IMG/VR virus record: IMGVR_UViG_3300037067_013691
Length of the DNA stretch: 20,000 nucleotides
Direction: 5' to 3' (one strand)
Origin: an uncultured virus (IMG/VR IMGVR_UViG_3300037067_013691)
Lineage: Duplodnaviria; Heunggongvirae; Uroviricota; Caudoviricetes
Positions 1 through 13,390 of the stretch are shown here, piece after piece (the stretch's first letter is position 1; each line of letters begins with the position of its first letter). The position numbers and the translations under genes are program-made. The notes below the pieces were generated by a model. That model did not search any database and was not told where the DNA came from. It saw only the letters and a list, made by a program, of their open reading frames with translations.

Positions 1-3000
1 TATTCAATTACTCCTGCAACACCATAATCATTAAATATTTTCTTTGTATTATCACTATACTTATCATATTGGTCTTTTGTTATAGTAAATATATTCCCAT
101 CCACATCACGACCTGCATATAACTTATCTTCTACATCCCCAATAATTTTAGCACTATCATTAAACCATTCTTGCCATTCCTTAAACTCACTTGGAGTTTT
201 AGGTTTTTCAATAATTGGATTAAATTGTGTTACATTCTCACTTACTACTGGCTCTGAAATCTTAGGTTTTATTTCAGTTACAACCGATGGAGCAACACCT
301 ACATTCCAATCATTCTTCAGGACATATTTAATACCATCCCTTAAATCTTGTGCCATATTTCCACAATAAGGGCCTGAACACATCATTTGTGTTACTTCTT
401 TTGTTTTAGGGTCAATAGTATAATTCCCTGTTTTCCATCCTTCCCCTGCCTGTTGATACCATAATCCTACAACTTCACCATTTGCACCTTTTATCATAGC
501 ATACTTCATTAATACTGGAGTTTTACCTTTTCCAGAACCAACATCAGGAGAAGTCATTGCTTCAAAATATGCTATATTCTGCCCTCTCAATTCATCAGGG
601 CCTCCCACGTCTTCTGACTTACCTACCTTCGTTGAACTTTCTACTACTATTTGACTCTGTGACTTAGGTACAAATAAATCTGTAGTTATACCAGCAGTTC
701 TTAATGGTTTTAAATCTTCTAGACTAATTAATACTTCTGATTCCCCTATCCTTTTCAACCCTTCAGCATTAGGAATTTCTTTCTTCAATAAGTATTCTTC
801 TGCAACCTTTCCACCTATTTCTAATTCGGGATGTAAAGCTTTTCCTTCTGGAGTGAATTGAGAAATAAATCCTTCCATATATATAGAAGGATTATCAGCC
901 ATATCTTGCCTTAATTCTTCCGTAAATTTATCAAGTCTATAGCCATTATTTGTAGCTAAAGATTTATTGTAAATCTCTATAATTCGTTTATCTTTTTCTG
1001 TCCTATCTTTCTCCCTTGGGGATAAAGCTAGTTTCAACAACCTATTTGCTTCTACACTATTTAAAGAAACCACCACTGGAACTTCCGTTGGTTGTATGCC
1101 ACTCGCAATATTTACAAATTCATTTGTTTTATATTCTTCTATCTGCCTACGTAAATCATCCCCTTGCATCCGATTTGCCACATCAAGTATAAAATCATCT
1201 TCCTTCGTATTTATACCCTTTAACTTATTCTCTTTAGCCGTCTTTACCATATTATTTGCTTTTTCAATAGTAACATAAGTAATCGTAGGCATTCTGGTAT
1301 CTTCATCCTTAACCATTATTGCCCTAGCAAGATACTGATTAAAATCAGTCCCCGATCTCAATGAAGGATATGCCCTATTAAATTCTGCCCAAGTCATTAC
1401 CTTATTTGTGGTTGTATCTAATACATTTAATAACGTACTATCTGTAGGATTACGAAAAACAAATGCCCACCCATCATCTTTCATAATTTGCATGGAAATG
1501 CCAGGAGCAGTCACCTTAGCATATTCTCCCATTGGAACACTAAATACTTGTCCCTTTAATTTAACAGATGTGCCATCTTTAAATGTTATGGGATTCTCGC
1601 TCCTCGTAAATCCCGTAACACGATTAATACCTGATAAGAGTGTTTGTTTAGCTACAAATTCACCATATCGATCATATATTTCTAACGCAACTTTTAAATT
1701 ATTCTCATGTTCAGCAGGGTTATCTTTTGCCAAGAATACATTTATATCATTCGCAAATTGATCTCTTGCTTCTTTAATAACAGAATCACCATACTTATAC
1801 TTACGATAACTAGCTAAATCACTTATTTTATTTTTCTCTTTAACTTCAGAATTTAACTGTTTGAACTCGCTAAGATCAGTTTTATCTTTTTTAGCAACAT
1901 CTTCAGCCAATAGTACAGATACTTTATCGGGAGCAATCACAGACGCAGTTGAAATATCACCCTTCTTGTATACAGCCGCAGCTAATGATTCTCCACTTAA
2001 TTTATTATTACCTGATTCTTTTCTTACTTCATTAACTATCTTTACTCCTTCTGGTGTTAATCCACTTGTTCCACCTGCCACACTAGCAGCTATTTGAGCT
2101 ATAGGACTCAACGATGCCAATCCAACAGCACCTTTGGATGTTTCTTTACCTATAAATCCTGACTGTCCACCTCCAGGTCTTGACGAACCCTCATAACCTA
2201 CTAATACACCCCCTAAACGGGCTTCTTCACCATTGGCATTTTTTTCTATTGATACACCCTTGATACTCTCTTTACTCTCTTTACTCTCTTTACTCTCTTT
2301 ACTCTCTTTACTCTCTTTACTCCCACCCCCACTATAACCTTTACCACCACCACTATCACCACGGGAAATTGCTATCTCCCCCATTATAATCTTTTGTGAT
2401 TTCGACCAATCTTCTTTCTCTTCAGGTGTCATACGTTTAAATACATAATCAGATGCAGCCGTTAATGCTCGATTAATAGCGAACGCATCACCCATTCCTG
2501 CTGCTGACCCTGTAAATCCTTGCCCCAAATTACCCGCACCGGATTGTTGATAATAATAGAGTGGAGGATTCTCTTTATCTGTACCATCACCAAGTTTACG
2601 TGTTACTATTCTAGATAATAAATTCCTGTAATTAGACTTATAATTTTTAAACCATTCCCTATCTACTGCGGATACAGGCTGTATGGCAGCACCACCCCTA
2701 GTTACGCCCCTCGCTTTTTCCTTGCTCTCATTAATCTGTTTTATCTTTTCATTTAGCTTGTTATCATCTGACCACTCTTCATCTGATAAAGAAGCTATCG
2801 TACTGCTAGATAAACCAGAACGTAATTTATCATTTGCAACATCACCAAAATCTTTCTGAACTTTAGCATTATATTCTGCCATCAATTCAGCAAGTCTAGA
2901 TGTTCCAATCCCACCAATACCAAATGTAGCACCTTTTTCTGACTCCTTTTCCCTAAATAACGCATATTGATACGCTTTATATCTAGGTGAATCCTTGGCA

Positions 3001-3188
3001 GGAATCCCAATAGGGCTAATACTAACATACGTTTTTTTAACCTCAGCTTGTTTTGCAACAATTTGTGGAGTTTTATCGCCTATACGTGCCAATTGATCTG
3101 AAGTATATTTATTAGCATTACTTCCACGTGTAGCCTGATCTACTGTAAACTTTTGTGTACTTGTTGTTTTTAACTTATCTATTGCCAT
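1..3188 (-). CDS. Large hypothetical protein (>1060 aa, 3'-truncated by the window edge), possibly an internal virion protein
   Basis: ATG at 3188 lies just after the stop of the upstream gene (3190). It reads MAIDKLKTTSTQKFTVDQATRG... and stays open to position 1 (...DYGVAGVIE). It is missing from the ORF track because there is no stop in the window. Charged/Gly-rich; no family recognised. Confidence 0.85.
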   Translation of the reverse strand, partial: MAIDKLKTTSTQKFTVDQATRGSNANKYTSDQLARIGDKTPQIVAKQAEVKKTYVSISPIGIPAKDSPRYKAYQYALFREKESEKGATFGIGGIGTSRLAELMAEYNAKVQKDFGDVANDKLRSGLSSSTIASLSDEEWSDDNKLNEKIKQINESKEKARGVTRGGAAIQPVSAVDREWFKNYKSNYRNLLSRIVTRKLGDGTDKENPPLYYYQQSGAGNLGQGFTGSAAGMGDAFAINRALTAASDYVFKRMTPEEKEDWSKSQKIIMGEIAISRGDSGGGKGYSGGGSKESKESKESKESKESKESIKGVSIEKNANGEEARLGGVLVGYEGSSRPGGGQSGFIGKETSKGAVGLASLSPIAQIAASVAGGTSGLTPEGVKIVNEVRKESGNNKLSGESLAAAVYKKGDISTASVIAPDKVSVLLAEDVAKKDKTDLSEFKQLNSEVKEKNKISDLASYRKYKYGDSVIKEARDQFANDINVFLAKDNPAEHENNLKVALEIYDRYGEFVAKQTLLSGINRVTGFTRSENPITFKDGTSVKLKGQVFSVPMGEYAKVTAPGISMQIMKDDGWAFVFRNPTDSTLLNVLDTTTNKVMTWAEFNRAYPSLRSGTDFNQYLARAIMVKDEDTRMPTITYVTIEKANNMVKTAKENKLKGINTKEDDFILDVANRMQGDDLRRQIEEYKTNEFVNIASGIQPTEVPVVVSLNSVEANRLLKLALSPREKDRTEKDKRIIEIYNKSLATNNGYRLDKFTEELRQDMADNPSIYMEGFISQFTPEGKALHPELEIGGKVAEEYLLKKEIPNAEGLKRIGESEVLISLEDLKPLRTAGITTDLFVPKSQSQIVVESSTKVGKSEDVGGPDELRGQNIAYFEAMTSPDVGSGKGKTPVLMKYAMIKGANGEVVGLWYQQAGEGWKTGNYTIDPKTKEVTQMMCSGPYCGNMAQDLRDGIKYVLKNDWNVGVAPSVVTEIKPKISEPVVSENVTQFNPIIEKPKTPSEFKEWQEWFNDSAKIIGDVEDKLYAGRDVDGNIFTITKDQYDKYSDNTKKIFNDYGVAGVIE
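2265..2322. repeat. 9-bp tandem repeat (ACTCTCTTT)x6 encoding (Ser-Lys-Glu)6 in the large minus-strand ORF
   Basis: Six perfect units at 2265-2318 plus a partial ACTC; in frame as GGG-SKESKESKESKESKESKE-SIK. Confidence 0.95.
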
Positions 3189-3189
3189 T

Positions 3190-3498
3190 TTACATCCCTC
3201 CTCTACTATTGGATGTCCATCTAGAGATAACATACAACACTATAACTATTAAAAATATAGCCATCGATGGAACATATAATTGTGTAACTGCTTGTTCTAA
3301 TCCAGTCATAGGTATTCTGCCTGCCTGTTCTGCTGTCAATATCTTCCCCGTAGCATTCCACGTTGTCATATCTGAAGCATTAAACGTCTGGGCTAATGTT
3401 CCATTATCGGCAGTCCAATGTAAAGCAATACTTTGTGTAATAGGAACAATAATGAATATCCCTATCAAACACCAAAACACAAACATTACCTTGCCCAC
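3190..3498 (-). CDS. Small two-TM membrane protein (102 aa), putative minor virion membrane protein
   Basis: N- and C-terminal hydrophobic helices; the loop has NGT, NAS and NAT sequons; start overlaps the upstream stop. Confidence 0.8.
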   Translation of the reverse strand: MGKVMFVFWCLIGIFIIVPITQSIALHWTADNGTLAQTFNASDMTTWNATGKILTAEQAGRIPMTGLEQAVTQLYVPSMAIFLIVIVLYVISRWTSNSRGGM

Positions 3499-5709: not shown

Positions 5710-8700
5710 CTATGCGCCTGTCTTTAACCATACTTGCCATACAAATAATACCAACGCTACCGCTAACATAATTGCCATCATTGCTAACTCTGCCAAACCT
5801 GTACCCCACAAAATAATAATAATTGGCACAGGGATAACAATAGCTGCAATAGCATGACCAGCAGGAAAACATAGTAACGCTACTATGGCATATACAACAA
5901 ATCCTATTAACGTACCAACCGTACTACCCTCAATATTAAACGAGTTACCTACAGTAGAAAATATACGTGTAACTTGTGGGCCAAGCAATGTCCGCCATGC
6001 TAATTCTGATTGATACTCATGATTATAATCATCCTCATTTGGAGTAGGAGAACTGGATACAATTGTAAATAAATTAGGACGCACAACATCTAATTCTGGG
6101 ATACACGTTGAAAAGATAACACCACCACTAGAATTCAAACAAACACCACGCCCTGAGATATACTCAGTTAAATCAGTTGAATAATATGTCTCCATTAAAG
6201 AAGCAGAAGACCGCACCCACGAATCCAATCTAGTTAAATCTGAACCCTGCCAATCAGATGATACTAAAGCATACTCGGCATAAGTATTCGGTGAAAAATT
6301 AGCATAAATCCTTACCCTATAAGATGAACCCCAATCTAATGCAGTTACAGAGTCAGCAGCAAGATATATTGAACCTGGTCTATATCCCCACTCAAAACAC
6401 TTAGTTTGTGCTATAACTGTTGTACCATTAACCAATTGTAAATAAAATAATGTTGACACATCTTTAGCTTGGTCATAGTAAGGAGGATAAAAGTTCTTAT
6501 ATAATAATGTAATTAGCCAATCCCCTGTCTCAATGTATCCAGAAAAAACTTTAGCATCATCTACTGACAAGCATGGATTGCCCCATACTTCAAATAAATA
6601 ATCTACAGTCCATAATGATACCCACGATACACCATCTGTAACAGAATATCCCCCTGCTCCACCACCATATCCACCACCACTATCAGCTTGCCACATTACA
6701 TAATTTGAAGAATCACCTGCAACTGCACGTATCACAACAGCATATGTAGTATTAGCTGTAAGGCATTTCTCTGTATCCATTGTAAATGTATACCACGTGT
6801 AAGATGTTGAGAAAGAATTACCATCTAATTCACAATAAACTAAATCAGCACCCGTAGGATATGGGTCTGTACTATATGCAGTAGTTTGCGTACTCCAAAT
6901 ATATCCAGTTGCGTTATGCGAATAAGACCTATAATAATAGGTTTGATATGCACTAGTAGGAGCATCATAAGTCCAACTACCAGCCGAATAAGACCCACTA
7001 ACAGTATAATTAGTAGAATATGATGCTGGTGGATTTTCCTTTACTGGTAAAGTAGCATTAGAAGTATGTCCCCAAGCAAATCCTCTAGCATCCATAGTTG
7101 TAATATATGAGCCTGAAAATGTTGTTGTAGTTGGTGTTACTGTATTACGAATAGATACCCTGACAGTTCCAGGACTTCCCACCTTTTTAAGCATTACTTT
7201 TACAGTAGTAATAGAATGTGGAATATCAGTTGTATTAGTAGTAAATGTTTGATAAGTTAAATTAGCTGAGTTAATTTTGTTAGAATCACCATCACCACCA
7301 ATATTCCAATATTCATAAGGAACAGGAGAACCTTTTGTTGCAAATAACTTATCATCACCATAGTACCATGTTGATCCAAGTAGCATCTTAGCACGATAAT
7401 GATAAACAGTAGCCGCATTTAACCCCGTAACAGACCTACTAAATACACCTGAACTATATGTTCCTGATTCTACACTAGAATAACCATAAGAAGAATTTAA
7501 ACCATAATCAAACCCTACTTGTGAAACTGTAAGTGTAGATGATACTACTAACAAACCATTTAATATTGCCGTAGTCTGTGTAAATCCTGTTACTCCTTTG
7601 GTAGTAACTGAATTTTCATATGGGGTAGAAATACAACCAGTATATGTATCAGAATACTGTGAAAGTACACCATCATAACACCATGTCCATGCTCTAAAAT
7701 AATACGCTGTACCATTTATCAATCCCATTTGGACATAATTTGTTCCAGTAGAATTGTATGATAGAGTGCCATCCGTAACATCCGCAGGATATCCACCTGT
7801 TTTATATCTAATTACAGTATGAACAACTGTACCTGTACCCGCAACTGCATTTGTCCATGTTAAATCTATAGCAGAATTATTTGATGTACAGGTGAATCCA
7901 GTTGGCTCTGTAGGCTTGGTTAAAAATGTTTCCTCGCCACCCCATCCATATCCTGTAACATTATATGAATATGCTCTTTCATAATACCTATCACCAGATG
8001 TTAATCCTGTCTTATTATAAGAAAATGCTCCTGTTGAGAAAACTCCCACTTCTGTATAATTTGACGTATAAGAGGCTGGAGGAACTTCATTTACTGGTAA
8101 CGTACTATTAGATGTTGTCCCCCATGCAAATCCTCTCATTGTAGGATTTAATGCATCAATTATTTGTCCATTCATTGTAGAAGTGGTTTCTTCCACTAAT
8201 GTAGTTGTATTAGTTGTAGTGATAGGAACAGGAGAGGGAAGAGTATACTCAATATGTAATTTAGCACATTTAGTAGTTGACCCATCATAAGTATAAACAT
8301 CCCTGTAAGTATTATTAACAGCAGTAGAACTTCCTGCATGGTCGTCCCAAAATAAAACCATAGCATTCCCACTCACCCATCCTCCCCGTGACACTATCTC
8401 TTGAATTATTGTCTTAATTTCAGGTGAATTATATGCCGTATTTGCAGTCCAAGCAGGAATCCCATTCCATGTCACAGATGCAGTAGTAATATAGTTATTA
8501 TTCGCACCCGCAACAATTGTTCCTCTCCTCGCCTGATAATTAGCTAATGTAGAAAATACAGCAGCATTATCTTCATCATCACCAATAATTACTGAGTTTA
8601 CTACTGTATTTGATAATGATGTGACTGCCGTATAGGTTAAATACGATGTAGTAATAGTTCCTGTATTTGGGATAGTAACATTGAGAAAACGATATCCACC

Positions 8701-9603
8701 CCCAAACTTAAAACCAGCAGCACTATAACATCCTACATCAGATGATGTAATTGCTATACCATCTGTAGCCCAAGCAGAACCATTCCAATAAACACGCATA
8801 TCTCCTGCGCTTGCACCTACTATTAAATCAAGAGTAGGGTCTATTTCTATTGGATATTTAGATACTTTACCTTTATCTATATTCTCTATTAAAACATTAT
8901 TTATATAAGAAGTATCTACTTTAATATTATCTACACCACCATCTCTTGCCTGATAATCTACCTTTATACCACTGCCACTCTTAGTTAAATTAAAAGTGGC
9001 TTTAGTTGGTGCAGCAGACGATTTAAGTATTCTCTTAAACCGTACCATTGAATTAGATGCCTCTAATATTATATCAGTATCAATTGCAACATCTTTAAAT
9101 GTAACCTTACCACTTTCTACGATTGCTGATTGTATCGGGATAGATTTATCATCTATTTGAGTAATTTTAATATCAACTATTGAACCAGTTCGTTTATCTT
9201 TAACTATTATAGACTTATTCTGATAATCTATTGATAGTTCATATGGTGCTTTTGTGATTTTACCATCAACAATAGTTAAATCAATATCTTTCCACTGCTC
9301 TACAGAACTATCATAATTATCTTTATAATGTATAGGAGCTAATGCGATATCTGTAGAATACTTACCACCACCAAGATAGATTATTTTACAATTCTCTGTA
9401 CGATTTCCAATAATTTCCTGATTAGGAAAATATTTAATTCCCCCTACTACCACTACATCTTCTGTTACTGATGGTTTATTTAAGAAGGGAAACAATAACC
9501 CTAACGGGTCAGCAGCTTGAACAGGTTGAGGTATCACCATTAACAATGTAACGATGACCAACAACAAAGAATTGACCCATCTTACCTTTTGCCAATTCTG
9601 CAT
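5710..9603 (-). CDS. Large membrane-anchored surface/spike protein (1297 aa): WapA/RHS-like N-terminal module, FN3-like repeats, C-terminal TM bundle
   Basis: Signal peptide (..QPVQAA); RTEN..PIHYK..W.DID..YPIEIDPT module; repeated GL..GT.YYFRA FN3 motifs; three hydrophobic helices at the C-terminus. Confidence 0.8.
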   Translation of the reverse strand: MQNWQKVRWVNSLLLVIVTLLMVIPQPVQAADPLGLLFPFLNKPSVTEDVVVVGGIKYFPNQEIIGNRTENCKIIYLGGGKYSTDIALAPIHYKDNYDSSVEQWKDIDLTIVDGKITKAPYELSIDYQNKSIIVKDKRTGSIVDIKITQIDDKSIPIQSAIVESGKVTFKDVAIDTDIILEASNSMVRFKRILKSSAAPTKATFNLTKSGSGIKVDYQARDGGVDNIKVDTSYINNVLIENIDKGKVSKYPIEIDPTLDLIVGASAGDMRVYWNGSAWATDGIAITSSDVGCYSAAGFKFGGGYRFLNVTIPNTGTITTSYLTYTAVTSLSNTVVNSVIIGDDEDNAAVFSTLANYQARRGTIVAGANNNYITTASVTWNGIPAWTANTAYNSPEIKTIIQEIVSRGGWVSGNAMVLFWDDHAGSSTAVNNTYRDVYTYDGSTTKCAKLHIEYTLPSPVPITTTNTTTLVEETTSTMNGQIIDALNPTMRGFAWGTTSNSTLPVNEVPPASYTSNYTEVGVFSTGAFSYNKTGLTSGDRYYERAYSYNVTGYGWGGEETFLTKPTEPTGFTCTSNNSAIDLTWTNAVAGTGTVVHTVIRYKTGGYPADVTDGTLSYNSTGTNYVQMGLINGTAYYFRAWTWCYDGVLSQYSDTYTGCISTPYENSVTTKGVTGFTQTTAILNGLLVVSSTLTVSQVGFDYGLNSSYGYSSVESGTYSSGVFSRSVTGLNAATVYHYRAKMLLGSTWYYGDDKLFATKGSPVPYEYWNIGGDGDSNKINSANLTYQTFTTNTTDIPHSITTVKVMLKKVGSPGTVRVSIRNTVTPTTTTFSGSYITTMDARGFAWGHTSNATLPVKENPPASYSTNYTVSGSYSAGSWTYDAPTSAYQTYYYRSYSHNATGYIWSTQTTAYSTDPYPTGADLVYCELDGNSFSTSYTWYTFTMDTEKCLTANTTYAVVIRAVAGDSSNYVMWQADSGGGYGGGAGGYSVTDGVSWVSLWTVDYLFEVWGNPCLSVDDAKVFSGYIETGDWLITLLYKNFYPPYYDQAKDVSTLFYLQLVNGTTVIAQTKCFEWGYRPGSIYLAADSVTALDWGSSYRVRIYANFSPNTYAEYALVSSDWQGSDLTRLDSWVRSSASLMETYYSTDLTEYISGRGVCLNSSGGVIFSTCIPELDVVRPNLFTIVSSSPTPNEDDYNHEYQSELAWRTLLGPQVTRIFSTVGNSFNIEGSTVGTLIGFVVYAIVALLCFPAGHAIAAIVIPVPIIIILWGTGLAELAMMAIMLAVALVLFVWQVWLKTGA

Positions 9604-9794
9604 TTGCCCTCAAAATACTGATAATCTGCCCTTGCTGTTTTTTGAATCTTAGGGTCTTTAGACTTATACATTAAATAACGACAAAATCTAGCAGAACCAT
9701 CATATCCACCCTTGCTTGCTAATATTTTATATCGTCTCTGTCTCTGTGTATCAGTCTTATCCCAAACAAATGGCTGATGTGGACGTATCCTCAT
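9582..9794 (-). CDS. Small basic protein (70 aa)
   Basis: ORF track. Arg/Lys-rich; starts 3 nt after the upstream stop and overlaps the spike gene start. Confidence 0.65.
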   Translation of the reverse strand: MRIRPHQPFVWDKTDTQRQRRYKILASKGGYDGSARFCRYLMYKSKDPKIQKTARADYQYFEGKCRIGKR

Positions 9795-9797
9795 TCT

Positions 9798-9947
9798 TTA
9801 ACCCTTAAATAAACCTTTTAAATTACCTTTACCACTACTAAATGTCTTTTTAAAATCAGCGTTCAATTGACCAATAGACTTAGTTACAATTTTCTTGTTA
9901 ACAAATTTATCCAACTTAGAAACCTTACGTTTTGTTTTCTTTGGCAC
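9798..9947 (-). CDS. Small Lys-rich peptide (49 aa, MPKKTKRKVSKLDKFVNKK...LFKG)
   Basis: Hand translation. GTG start with GGGGG SD; fills the gap between flanking ORFs almost exactly. Confidence 0.65.
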   Translation of the reverse strand: MPKKTKRKVSKLDKFVNKKIVTKSIGQLNADFKKTFSSGKGNLKGLFKG

Positions 9948-9948
9948 T

Positions 9949-10056
9949 TTAGTTTCCCCCTTTATTAATATTCTTATTTCTGTTCCGTTTTAATGTCTTG
10001 CGATACTTATGCTTACACATCTTTTTTATGTGCCATTTCAAACCATTTTTACTCAT
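9949..10056 (-). CDS. 35-aa basic peptide resembling ribosomal protein bS22/mS38 (COX24/AURKAIP1 C-terminal family)
   Basis: MSKNGLKWHIKKMCKHKYRKTLKRNRNKNINKGGN. The KKMxKHKYRKxLKRxR core matches my recollection of that family's motif. ATGA overlap with the upstream ORF. Confidence 0.55.
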   Translation of the reverse strand: MSKNGLKWHIKKMCKHKYRKTLKRNRNKNINKGGN

Positions 10057-10139
10057 CTCAAACTAGCACGATGCTTTGATTTTATCTTAGCACCAGTATG
10101 ATACTTCTTACACTTACAACAATATCGTTTCTTAACCAT
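10053..10139 (-). CDS. 28-aa basic Cys/His peptide (MVKKRYCCKCKKYHTGAKIKSKHRASLR)
   Basis: Hand translation. AGGGA SD upstream; its stop overlaps the next ATG (ATGA). Confidence 0.6.
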   Translation of the reverse strand: MVKKRYCCKCKKYHTGAKIKSKHRASLR

Positions 10140-10168: not shown

Positions 10169-10201
10169 GGGGGTAGTTCCCTTTTATTGAGAACTACCCC
10201 C
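10169..10201 (-). terminator. Strong 11-bp hairpin downstream of the intron-split gene (stabiliser or leaky terminator)
   Basis: GGGGGTAGTTC (10169-10179) / GAACTACCCCC (10191-10201); no U-tract on the minus strand. Confidence 0.6.
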
Positions 10202-10217
10202 TTGACTTAAACTAAAC

Positions 10218-10914
10218 TTAAGTCAAACCCTGAGCAGCTTTGGCGATCAGGATAAATAGAAGGATTATAATTGCTAAAGCAACTACGATACCAACTATTT
10301 CGCATACCAAGGTCTCTTCGGTTGTAGACCAACCAGTGGTATTCTCGCAAAGAGAAGTGGCAATTCCCCTGACAACCTGAAATGAAATCATGCCGATTAC
10401 GCCACATACGATTATCTGTTACGATATTACTGTCAATATCGGCTAAATCATTTCTGTTTAGCTCTTTATGTTTCCATAAAGCTCGGACTATATCATTACC
10501 CTTAATGGGTAGAAAGCCCATAGTCTCTACACATTTATCAGACTTATCTGAATTTAGCTCGGTATTAGCATGGCATTCAGCTTTAGCTTTCACCGAATTC
10601 GCTTTCTGCACCTTACCAATTACTCGATAAGGGGGCTGGCTTTTGTCAACCATCATCAGCATTACGCAATCTGTTACCACATATCCATTTTGATATGTGA
10701 CTAACTTATTTCTAGTTAGTTCACTATGTTTCCATAGTGTTCCGAGCACACCTTCATCCAATTTGGATGCCTCGTATCTGCTCTGTACGCATTTATCAAC
10801 TTGCGTTGAATTTAGTTCGGGATTCCCATGCCCAAAAGGTTTAGGGTCAACCGAGTTAGCGAGGTGCATCTGCCCAGTTACCTGAACAGAGGGCCTAATG
10901 ACCTGTCCAATCAT
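10218..10914 (-). CDS. Spliced 72-aa two-helix membrane protein, putative major virion protein; exons 10914-10901, 10666-10649, 10404-10218
   Basis: The joined exons (219 nt) read MIGQVVMLMMVGVIGMISFQVVRGIATSLCENTTGWSTTEETLVCEIVGIVVALAIIILLFILIAKAAQGLT*. Junctions were predicted from P1/P10 pairings. The last 3' splice site is the least certain. Confidence 0.75.
10405..10648 (-). ncRNA. Group I self-splicing intron 2 (~244 nt, no ORF)
   Basis: P1 GGU|UGAC-AAAA-GCCAGCC with U.G wobble; P2 CCUUAUCGA-GUAA-UUGGUAAGG; P3 AGAAAGC/GCUUUCU; P4 UUCGGU/ACCGAG; P7 GAGACUA/UAGUCC; P8 ACCC/GGGU; P9 CUUUAUG-GAAA-CAUAAAG; P9.1 and P9.2 hairpins; P10 UGGC/GCCA. Confidence 0.9.
10667..10900 (-). ncRNA. Group I self-splicing intron 1 (234 nt, no ORF)
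   Basis: P1 GGU|C-AUUA-GGCC; P2 UCUGUUCAG-GUAA-CUGGGCAGA; P3 CCUCG/CGAGG; P6a UCAAC-GCAA-GUUGA; P7 CAGAGCA/UGCUCG; P8 CAUCC/GGAUG; P9 CACUAUG-GAAA-CAUAGUG; P9.2 CACAUAUC/GAUAUGUG; ends GUAACAGAUUG; P10 UAAUG/CAUUA. Confidence 0.88.
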
Positions 10915-10961
10915 GTTATTATATTCCTAAGAATCCTACCGATTCGTGCAAACGCAAACAT
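10911..10961 (-). CDS. 16-aa leader ORF (MFAFARIGRILRNIIT) coupled to the intron-split gene
   Basis: Strong SD AAAAGGAGG 9 nt before the ATG at 10961; its TGA overlaps the ATG at 10914 (ATGA). Confidence 0.5.
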   Translation of the reverse strand: MFAFARIGRILRNIIT

Positions 10962-11133
10962 TTAAGTTTGCCTCCTTTTAAGTTAATACCTGTACGATTT
11001 AAACGATAATTTCTTCTCATTTCCACAAATAGATAACAGGATAGGCACAAATAAATAAATTGAATTAATGCCTAGGCTTGCGGAAACTGTTTTTGACAAT
11101 TAATAAATTGTACTAAGAAGAAATAAATCTCGT

Positions 11134-11217
11134 TTATACGTAAACTTTTCGCCCTTTGCGCATACGATACTTTCCACCACGTTTGCCAGTATGAAGTTTA
11201 CCTTTCTTACGAGCCAT
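11134..11217 (-). CDS. 27-aa basic peptide MARKKGKLHTGKRGGKYRMRKGRKVYV (resembles the PBCV basic adaptor motif TGxRGGKY..G.KVYV)
   Basis: Hand translation. First ORF after the promoter at 11306-11334; AGGGA SD. Confidence 0.65.
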   Translation of the reverse strand: MARKKGKLHTGKRGGKYRMRKGRKVYV

Positions 11218-11305: not shown

Positions 11306-11334
11306 ATGTTATCATGTATTTTGCAGGTTGTCAA
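11306..11334 (-). promoter_or_regulatory. Sigma70-type promoter of the structural operon
   Basis: TTGACA-17 bp-(TGa)TAACAT. The -35 overlaps the endonuclease stop codon, and an 18-bp perfect palindrome (11294-11311) covers the -10/+1 region. Confidence 0.7.
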
Positions 11335-12389
11335 GTAGTAATGTTTTTGAAATTTAATGGATAATGGAGCATCTCATTTTCATACATCTCATTGTTAATA
11401 GGATTCAATCTATTCGTATATTCTCTCAATTTATCTATATTAGTCATCTTAAATAATAAAGCCACGAGGGGTTTGGTGATATATTTAAACTTATCACAAT
11501 TCCTTTTAAAAGTAATTGTATTCTCGTTAACTATTCCCAAACCTTCTTCCCTTACATTAATTATAAATATTCCCTTACCTTTAAAATGTTGCACCTTCTC
11601 CCTATCTTTATCTTCTTTGCCATTATGCCACCTACCCCCATCTATCTCTATACCGACATTAATACAAGGAATATATAGGTCACACTCTACTTTATCTATT
11701 TTTATTCTATGCTGAATATCAGGAAAATAATGATATAACTCACAAAAAGCAAATATTTCTAACCTAGATGTTTGATTATTACATTTTGGGCAACCATATC
11801 CTGCAACCCTATTCCACACAGTACATAAATATTCATGCCCATTTACACATTTCCACCAAACTTTACGGTTACTACCACTAGATATATTATATATAGTTAA
11901 TGGATAATTCTTTCCTACTATCCATTGACTTGCTAAATTGGGGTATTTTGATGCCAACGAATTACTATCATCTACTTTCTTCCCATCACAATAAGGACAC
12001 CCTTGCCTATTCTTACCAACCCTACTACTAATCCTTGCCAGATAACTATGTCCTTCCTCACATTTCCAACTCACTGTCTTAAAACTTCCTCGTGTTACCA
12101 TATTAGGCTTTAGTTTATCATTCTCCTCATAATCCCATTCCTTACATAATTCAGGTTCACAAGATAACAATGAATTAGTATCACTAACTTTCCTATTCTT
12201 ACAATAAGGGCATCCAGAAGCTCTTAATTTAGTTCTACTATCAATCCTTGCATCCCAAATATGCCCATTATTACATATCCACTCTGCACTCTTATTAGAA
12301 TTAGTCATTACCTCATCAAACAATTTCTCGTTCTTTGGACTCCACTGACTACGCAATTCTGGAAAATTATCTCTAAGTAATCCCTTCAT
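11331..12389 (-). CDS. Free-standing putative homing endonuclease: three treble-clef zinc-ribbon repeats plus a Vsr/DUF559-like nuclease domain
   Basis: Three W.C..GH.[WY]...R....CP.C repeats (DUF4379-like); C-terminal SRLE..ECDLYIP..GIEIDGGRWH..DREK (EDxHD-type catalytic motif). Confidence 0.8.
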   Translation of the reverse strand: MKGLLRDNFPELRSQWSPKNEKLFDEVMTNSNKSAEWICNNGHIWDARIDSRTKLRASGCPYCKNRKVSDTNSLLSCEPELCKEWDYEENDKLKPNMVTRGSFKTVSWKCEEGHSYLARISSRVGKNRQGCPYCDGKKVDDSNSLASKYPNLASQWIVGKNYPLTIYNISSGSNRKVWWKCVNGHEYLCTVWNRVAGYGCPKCNNQTSRLEIFAFCELYHYFPDIQHRIKIDKVECDLYIPCINVGIEIDGGRWHNGKEDKDREKVQHFKGKGIFIINVREEGLGIVNENTITFKRNCDKFKYITKPLVALLFKMTNIDKLREYTNRLNPINNEMYENEMLHYPLNFKNITT

Positions 12390-13361: not shown

Positions 13362-13390
13362 TTGACAACCACTGTATAATGTGTTATATT
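13362..13390 (+). promoter_or_regulatory. Rightward early promoter with operator
   Basis: TTGACA-17 bp-(TGt)TATATT; TATAA-TGTG-TTATA palindrome at 13375-13388; downstream SD TAAGGAG. Confidence 0.75.

Follow-up and report, generated by a model that had tools for sequence, protein, structure and literature searches.

A bS22-like peptide gene conserved in a clade of uncultivated virus-like elements, with a possible role on the host ribosome

The very small basic protein bS22, known from structures of the M. smegmatis, C. acnes and F. johnsoniae ribosomes, is described as a helix deep in the h27/h44/h45 cavity of the ribosome that also touches the 23S ribosomal RNA (rRNA; PMC10085706). In F. johnsoniae it occupies a site shared with archaeal eL41 and with part of mitochondrial mS38, and this site is vacant in other bacteria (PMC7797042, PMC7005279). 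Viral genomes, for their part, carry other small exchangeable ribosomal-protein homologues (bS21, bL12, bL9, bL31, bL33 and others); of these, bS21 and bL12 of viral origin are incorporated into E. coli ribosomes (PMC6375957), and phage bS21 is reported to lie amid structural genes and to be expressed late (bioRxiv 10.1101/2021.10.11.463225), as well as to be under purifying selection. Here we analyze a 20,000-nucleotide stretch of DNA (the window) from an uncultured virus (IMG/VR record IMGVR_UViG_3300037067_013691; Caudoviricetes), in which an open reading frame (ORF) of 35 codons at 9949..10056 encodes a peptide that, judged by profile comparison, is very likely homologous to bS22. It is very likely a divergent bS22, a class to which the conserved core of mitochondrial mS38/AURKAIP1/Cox24 also belongs. 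An earlier note, made from the letters of the window without database searches, had proposed a likeness to bS22/COX24/AURKAIP1 for a 35-amino-acid (35-aa) ORF coupled by an ATGA overlap and containing the core LKWHIKKMCKHKYRKTLKRNR; ORF, coupling and core are as it described them, the strand, which it left unnamed, is minus, and the likeness is borne out by the profile, shuffle, natural-control and conservation tests reported below.

The ORF, whose plus-strand counterpart over the same positions is closed, is a genuine gene under selection, carried by uncultivated virus-like elements that form a small clade and come from groundwater and landfill metagenomes. Relatives of the element were reached through the 1297-aa protein encoded nearby: 75 homologues of this protein were found, an alignment of 19 of them was used to find metagenome loci, and the loci analyzed are the best 80 of 162 confirmed relatives, the window's own contig being labeled L143. 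Three related contigs (L144, L145 and L146), in which the large neighboring protein is 58-67% identical to that of the window (tblastn), carry orthologues of 30-34 aa (MSKNGLKWHVAKMRKHKHRKMLKRDRKKNK, MSKNGLKWHIGKMRKHKYRKRMKRDRNKNKK and MSKNSLKWHLGKMRKHKHRKRLKRDRNKNINKGR, respectively) at the same syntenic place, followed in each case by basic genes of 45-46 and 70-74 codons and then by the large gene. The stretch M-x-K-H-K-Y, whose loss in relatives the earlier note had named as counter-evidence, is kept as M-x-K-H-K-[Y/H]-R-K in all three. The four viral peptides agree in 20 columns, among them the non-basic S2, N4, L6, W8, H9, M13, H16 and N29; at position 18 they have Y or H, as does cellular bS22, which alternates between these two residues there. 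Nucleotide differences between the orthologues fall mainly at third codon positions (8, 2 and 15 at the first, second and third positions for L143 versus L145) and include synonymous switches between CGN and AGR for arginine and between TTG and CTN for leucine; a crude count over 29 codons gives a pN of 0.08-0.17 with synonymous sites near saturation. By this substitution pattern the gene is under purifying selection, on the motif and on non-basic residues alike. Several studies' groundwater and landfill metagenomes also contain the window stretch with hardly any change, and DNA contigs from sequencing runs hold no variants within the ORF, which says nothing about selection because these contigs represent near-identical strains.

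Homology to bS22 is carried by comparison with a cellular control set that was not selected by motif. A search of 151 genomes of one phylum with the NCBIfam model ribo_bS22 (NF047430) matched 33 genomes at E <= 0.001 (26 above the model's cut-off), and 30 loci from this search yielded 24 unique cellular bS22 peptides with the consensus MGSVIKKRRKKMRKHKHRKMLKKTRWQRR. A hidden Markov model (HMM) built from these 24 peptides scored the window peptide at 29.1 bits and its three relatives at 25.7, 21.9 and 23.8 bits; none of 20,000 shuffled sequences (5000 per peptide) reached the real score, the maxima being 12.2-16.2 bits (12.2 for the window peptide). Of the 11,410 ORFs that the 80 loci contain at a length of 18 aa or more, the four viral peptides alone exceeded 8 bits with the cellular HMM; the 66 other small ORFs in these loci with at least 35% lysine plus arginine (K+R) all stayed at or below that level. 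Alignment of the four viral against the 24 cellular peptides (hhalign) gave a probability of 96.8% and an E value of 2.7e-10 over 25 ungapped columns, and the best ungapped identity of the window peptide to a single cellular peptide was 17/31. Within the window, the other small basic ORFs (27, 28, 49 and 70 aa) had no COX24_C or bS22 match at E <= 10.

Compared with cellular bS22, the viral peptides belong to the same size class (30-35 aa versus 28-32 aa) and share its basic helix motif, K-K-M-x-K-H-K-[H/Y]-[R/K]-K-x-[L/M]-[K/R]-[K/R]-x-R; of the 11 cellular positions that are invariant or nearly so (initiator methionine excluded), 8 are kept in all four viral peptides. With mS38/AURKAIP1/Cox24 the window peptide shares the pattern KNxLK....KM..HKYRK..KR.R: a phmmer search of the Protein Data Bank (PDB; 177,635 sequences) returned six distinct sequences at E <= 10, all of them mS38/AURKAIP1, with 14 of 24 aligned residues identical (mammalian mS38). 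There the motif is one segment of a 199-aa mitochondrial protein, whereas the viral peptide has 35 residues in all. The eL41 protein is likewise a tiny basic helix and is placed by the literature in the same h27/h44/h45 cavity as bS22 and mS38 (PMC7005279, PMC10085706); its likeness to the viral peptide is positional and taken from these reports, and the viral peptide has no match to Pfam Ribosomal_L41 at E <= 10. While bS22 is known from cells, the viral peptide is carried by a virus-like element, and its binding to ribosomes is proposed from sequence.

We put the probability that the peptide binds the host ribosome as a bS22 homologue and affects translation at roughly 45%. In this proposal the gene would most likely have been captured from a bacterium, and its product would be made together with those of the adjacent structural-type genes. 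The conserved helix, K-M-x-K-H-K-Y/H-R-K-x-L/M-K-R-x-R, would insert into the h27/h44/h45 pocket of the host 16S rRNA at the 30S subunit's neck, the site at which published structures place the bS22 family and hence the predicted site of the viral member; this pocket, the bS22 binding site, is empty in ribosomes of the E. coli type. By replacing host bS22 or filling the vacant site, the peptide might bias or damp translation late in infection. We infer the late timing and the ribosomal role from the viral bS21 and bL12 precedents together with the inhibitory effect that bS22 and eL41, as free peptides, have on an E. coli cell-free translation system (PMC10085706). The N-terminal third (MSKNGLKWH) is virus-specific and much less basic, which might make an occupied ribosome differ from one that holds the host protein, so that the altered N-terminus could render the viral version functionally distinct. 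A little more tentatively, the peptide may be the first viral member of the bS22/mS38/eL41 class, one that retains the rRNA-binding helix beneath a redesigned, weakly basic N-terminal head, plugs the pocket near the P site late in infection and yields a virus-specific ribosome favoring late messages or host shut-off.

Several results weigh against this assignment and the role built on it. When the COX24_C and bS22 profiles were searched, as the earlier note had suggested be done with composition controls, the sole Pfam match was COX24_C (PF08213; E 6.6e-4, 20 bits, below the gathering score of 23) and the sole NCBIfam match was ribo_bS22 (E 3.9e-4, 20.5 bits, below the cut-off of 34); the shuffle controls, scored with the HMM of cellular bS22, stayed below the real score. 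PHROGs gave no match to the 35-aa peptide. The COX24_C scores of the orthologues from L145 and L146 (20.1 and 22.0 bits) also stay below 23, and the L144 orthologue has no Pfam match whatever. Taken individually, the mS38 matches in the PDB are insignificant (E 2-10), actinobacterial and Bacteroidetes bS22 chains are absent from the PDB search results, and a PDB profile search with the four viral peptides brought no gain (mS38 only, E 5-10). A phmmer search of 1.84 billion representative sequences found no bS22 at E <= 0.001, a blank that says little because proteins this short may be sparse there; its lone match (E 7.9e-4), a 411-aa repeat protein resembling C2H2 zinc fingers, was rejected as unrelated because the viral peptide has one cysteine and cannot form such fingers. 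The cellular peptides also show invariant R8 and K10 and a nearly invariant S3, which in the viral peptides are H, variable and N, respectively. The share of K+R is 37% in the window peptide and 44-48% in its relatives, compared with a median of 53% in the cellular set and 55-65% given for bS22 in PMC10085706. The whole deficit lies in the first 11 residues (18% viral versus 55% cellular), the core being richer in the viral peptide (65% versus 53%), and it is the N-terminal part of bS22 that contacts h44/h45 at the neck (PMC10085706). No RNA run is listed among the sequencing runs that contain the stretch.

How much the missed cut-offs count can be gauged from cellular relatives of the same subtype. 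When prokaryotes, each species represented by one genome, were scanned for DNA encoding KM..HKY[KR]K..[KR]R, at least 120 loci were found, and about 115 of the 120 listed encode 29-33-aa peptides of one type, such as those of Nitrospira (MSSVLKKRRKKMRKHKYKKLRRRQKFLRRKS) and of a metagenome-assembled genome (MAG) of Anaerolineae (MANAKKWRKKKMAKHKYRKRLKRTRWERRKK), with others in Desulfobacteraceae, Lentisphaeraceae, Kiritimatiellia, Margulisiibacteriota and a Rickettsiales MAG. Five cellular peptides of this HKY subtype, each from a different genome, scored 34.2, 30.2, 23, 22.1 and 21.1 bits against NF047430, and only one passed the cut-off of 34. Missing the curated cut-off is therefore not disqualifying, since four of the five cellular peptides fail it too, and the 20.5 bits of the window peptide stand just under the lowest of them. 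A scan of IMG/VR for the motif KM..HKYRK gave 21 loci, none with a bS22-like small ORF.

The strongest rival to a ribosomal role, unlikely in our estimate but serious, is that the product is a nucleic-acid-binding peptide of the virion or nucleoid, exapted from bS22 or simply a generic polycation, that neutralizes or condenses the genome as one of several small polycations produced with the structural proteins, with bS22 ancestry a matter of history and not of function. The operon around the gene looks structural and encodes further small basic proteins: the gene follows an abundant-looking small membrane-protein gene and precedes two more basic proteins and giant tail-like proteins. Spindle-shaped archaeal viruses offer a parallel, with a small basic DNA-binding virion protein beside small hydrophobic capsid proteins. 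What keeps this explanation serious is that the slot in distant relatives holds unrelated small basic peptides. An HMM of four proteins of the 70-aa family identified 12 further loci at E < 0.01, and in seven of the nine more distant relatives examined that have this family the 70-aa gene is preceded by an unrelated basic ORF of 25-38 aa (K+R 0.39-0.56; for example MAKKKGRCKKWSKSGKKRCLKRAKR), immediately in L219, L218 and L206, and with further ORFs or more than 100 bases in between in L149, L199, L202 and L205. None of these seven peptides has a COX24_C or bS22 match at E <= 10; the idea that they mimic other tiny ribosomal proteins (such as bTHX) was dropped for want of Pfam matches. A role in charge alone, on the other hand, leaves the invariant non-basic residues unexplained despite saturated synonymous sites, and a virion polycation leaves unexplained why Y and H should toggle at bS22's own toggling position. 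Moreover, part of the large protein is common to tailed phages, which to our knowledge do not usually package protamine-like peptides.

It is improbable that the contig is a piece of bacterial chromosome (for example, from Patescibacteria) and the ORF that organism's own bS22. A homologue of the STT3-like enzyme of the relatives is labeled by NCBI 'MAG: STT3 domain-containing protein [Patescibacteria group bacterium]', and neither the window nor the roughly 25 kb covered per relative showed a capsid, portal or terminase gene; viral contigs are, however, often binned into host MAGs. None of about 27 ORFs in the window matches a housekeeping family. Its genes include one of homing-endonuclease type (DUF4379/endonuclease-like), an excisionase-like helix-turn-helix protein and many short ORFs of no known family, and those of the relatives include DnaB, AAA_25 ATPases, RecT, YopX, DUF5131, a tyrosine integrase, four kinds of DNA methylase, NUMOD3/HNH endonucleases, IS240-type transposases and an STT3/AglB-like oligosaccharyltransferase. 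One of the 75 homologues of the 1297-aa protein is named 'Tail protein, viral metagenome', and nine IMG/VR contigs share its residues 760-1010 or thereabouts; four of the five of these with scanned ORFs carry tail genes (tape measure, minor tail, tail fibre), and in at least one the ORF that matches the 1297-aa protein is itself a minor tail protein, placing the domain within phage tail modules. Close relatives were absent from IMG/VR scans with the 1297-, 590- and 396-aa neighbors (one weak locus, none and none, respectively). Among GenBank phages, neither the region nor the 1297-aa protein was matched by blastn or tblastn, and the 590-aa protein had one weak match (32.5% identity over 35% of its length). 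Cellular bS22 also keeps a basic N-terminus, which the viral peptide is without. The carrying element is thus a probable virus by its gene content: of the 'virus-encoded' in the earlier note, the phage-like genes and the tail-protein domain speak for the term, and a capsid or packaging gene to complete it was not seen in the DNA covered.

Chance or convergent likeness of a lysine- and arginine-rich peptide, with no common descent from bS22, is very improbable. In its favor stand the extreme shortness and basicity of the peptide, two curated scores under their cut-offs and PDB E values above 1; yet shuffling never reproduces the real scores, natural basic ORFs do not attain them, and the peptides align without gaps over their full length with an identity to a cellular peptide, and an hhalign E value, as given above. 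That the peptide is secreted or released and acts as a cationic antimicrobial or toxin is far-fetched: free C. acnes bS22 does inhibit the growth of several bacteria (PMC10085706), but the viral peptide has no signal peptide, no immunity or export gene lies nearby and the operon context is structural.

The features of the locus are collected in Table 1. As in the window, the bS22-like gene of L145 overlaps the stop of the gene upstream, there a membrane-protein paralogue. The 28-aa ORF that plays this part in the window has no counterpart in L144-L146 or the other related loci and no family match (Pfam, NCBIfam, PHROGs). The same holds for a second tiny basic candidate ORF of 27 aa (MARKKGKLHTGKRGGKYRMRKGRKVYV; 11134-11217, minus strand), which shares an HTG(x)K stretch with it; neither has a counterpart in the 80 loci. 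In the relatives, GGAG or AAGGAG immediately follows their shorter bS22-like ORFs. The 45-46-aa proteins encoded directly after the bS22-like gene in L144, L145 and L146 are orthologues of the 49-aa protein of the window, and an HMM of the four found no others among the 11,410 ORFs. The G+C-rich hairpin is reported on the plus strand by a scan for terminator-like structures; L144 has a similar hairpin before its bS22-like gene.

Table 1. Positions of features around the bS22-like gene in the window
Feature	Position	Strand	Remark
bS22-like peptide gene	9949..10056	minus	35 codons; translation MSKNGLKWHIKKMCKHKYRKTLKRNRNKNINKGGN
ATGA start/stop overlap	10053..10056	minus	ATG of the bS22-like gene shares four bases with the stop of the upstream 28-aa ORF
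28-aa basic ORF, MVKKRYCCKCKKYHTG...	10053..10139	minus	candidate gene, seen in this strain only
Shine-Dalgarno-like AAAGGGGGA	9955..9963	minus	for the next gene; within the last codons (K-G-G) of the bS22-like ORF
49-aa basic protein	9798..9947	minus	GTG start; conserved partner gene
70-aa basic protein	9582..9794	minus	wider family, always directly upstream of the large protein gene
1297-aa protein	5710..9603	minus	hydrophobic N-terminal leader and C-terminal hydrophobic tail
G+C-rich hairpin, GGGGTAGTTC...GAACTACCCC	10170..10200	minus	separates the membrane-protein gene from the small basic ORFs
Two-helix membrane-protein gene, ~71 aa	10218..10914	minus	split by two group I introns; from alignment to uninterrupted L149:6982-7197
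Exon 1 of this gene	10914-10901	minus	
Intron 1	10900-10667	minus	
Exon 2	10666-10649	minus	18 nucleotides
Intron 2	10648-10405	minus	
Exon 3	10404-10218	minus	

Farther out, 2-4 tandem paralogues of 77-122 aa with two hydrophobic helices lie just upstream of the basic peptide in L219 (8616-9503), L218 (1236-2520) and L199 (3703-4283); as they fill the slot of the window's intron-split gene, they may be the element's major structural or membrane protein. A giant ORF with no Pfam match follows the 590-, 144- and 102-aa genes, at 3-3233 of the window (minus strand; more than 1077 aa, continuing in L143 beyond 25254) and at L145:16212-24893 (2893 aa).

The intron-split gene replaces a listed 235-aa ORF (10207..10914), which we rejected as spurious. 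The Rfam model Intron_gpI (RF00028; gathering score 50) scores 78.8 bits at 10464-10659 (intron 2) and 18.7 bits, below gathering, at 10722-10974 (intron 1); GGT closes each of the two upstream exons and G each of the two introns, and in DNA contigs of other runs position 10403 adjoins 10649 and 10665 adjoins 10901, which makes them precise intron-less alleles. Relatives of the gene vary from one to three introns: L144 has one (67.2 bits), and L145 has three by alignment, none of which reaches the Rfam gathering score. The arrangement recalls Orf142 of Staphylococcus phage Twort, a different gene that is likewise short, is interrupted by three group I introns and has a very short internal exon (23 nucleotides, compared with 18 here; PMC10136302). 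About 400 bases upstream of the intron-split gene lies a free-standing gene (11331-12389, minus strand) for a 352-aa protein with three DUF4379 treble-clef zinc-finger repeats, a restriction-endonuclease-like C-terminus and a PHROG assignment as HNH/homing endonuclease; L145 has a NUMOD3+HNH endonuclease there. The DnaB-type helicase encoded at L178:1370-3970 (minus strand) holds an intein with a LAGLIDADG endonuclease domain. With an intein, introns and many NUMOD3 genes, the elements are evidently heavily colonized by selfish genetic elements.

As to the host, a bacterium is suggested by sigma-70-like promoters, strong Shine-Dalgarno sites, group I introns, DnaB and RecT, an archaeon by the AglB-type oligosaccharyltransferase and some (weaker) homologues in archaeal MAGs. 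Three promoter-like sites score 10-11 of 12 (13362-13390, plus strand; 12425-12397 and 13332-13303, minus strand) and are found where the divergent genes meet, in the intergenic region, and upstream of the endonuclease gene. The 15-mer GTATAATGTGTTATA, with an extended -10 TG, is common to two of them, the shared stretch continuing as GTATAATGTGTTATA(T/C)T. By their sequence these sites suggest a bacterial host and a common early promoter. The STT3/AglB-type enzyme, encoded at L144:252-2162 (plus strand), shows 43-64% identity from one element to another and 23-28% identity to archaeal AglB-like proteins.

The earlier note's remark that bS22 is not among the known phage ribosomal proteins agrees with the main texts searched: the titles and abstract openings of papers retrieved on bS22 together with phage or viral ribosomal proteins contain no report of a virus-encoded bS22, and the term 'bS22' has no occurrence in the main text of PMC6375957 or of a cyanophage preprint (bioRxiv 10.1101/2025.09.23.678156). 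The gene thus appears to add to the known virus-encoded ribosomal-protein homologues, bS22 not being among those that these main texts name. Its presence suggests that the element may tamper with host translation. Because bS22 sits at the neck of the small subunit, near the P site and the decoding center, and because the free peptide is inhibitory, a viral copy with an altered N-terminus would be a compact and testable tool of ribosome takeover; at 30-35 residues, its chemical synthesis is feasible. More generally, a widespread cellular subtype escapes the curated bS22 models, genes too short for ORF-calling cut-offs can conceal functions of this kind, and the viral copy could illuminate the function of bS22 itself, which is poorly understood.

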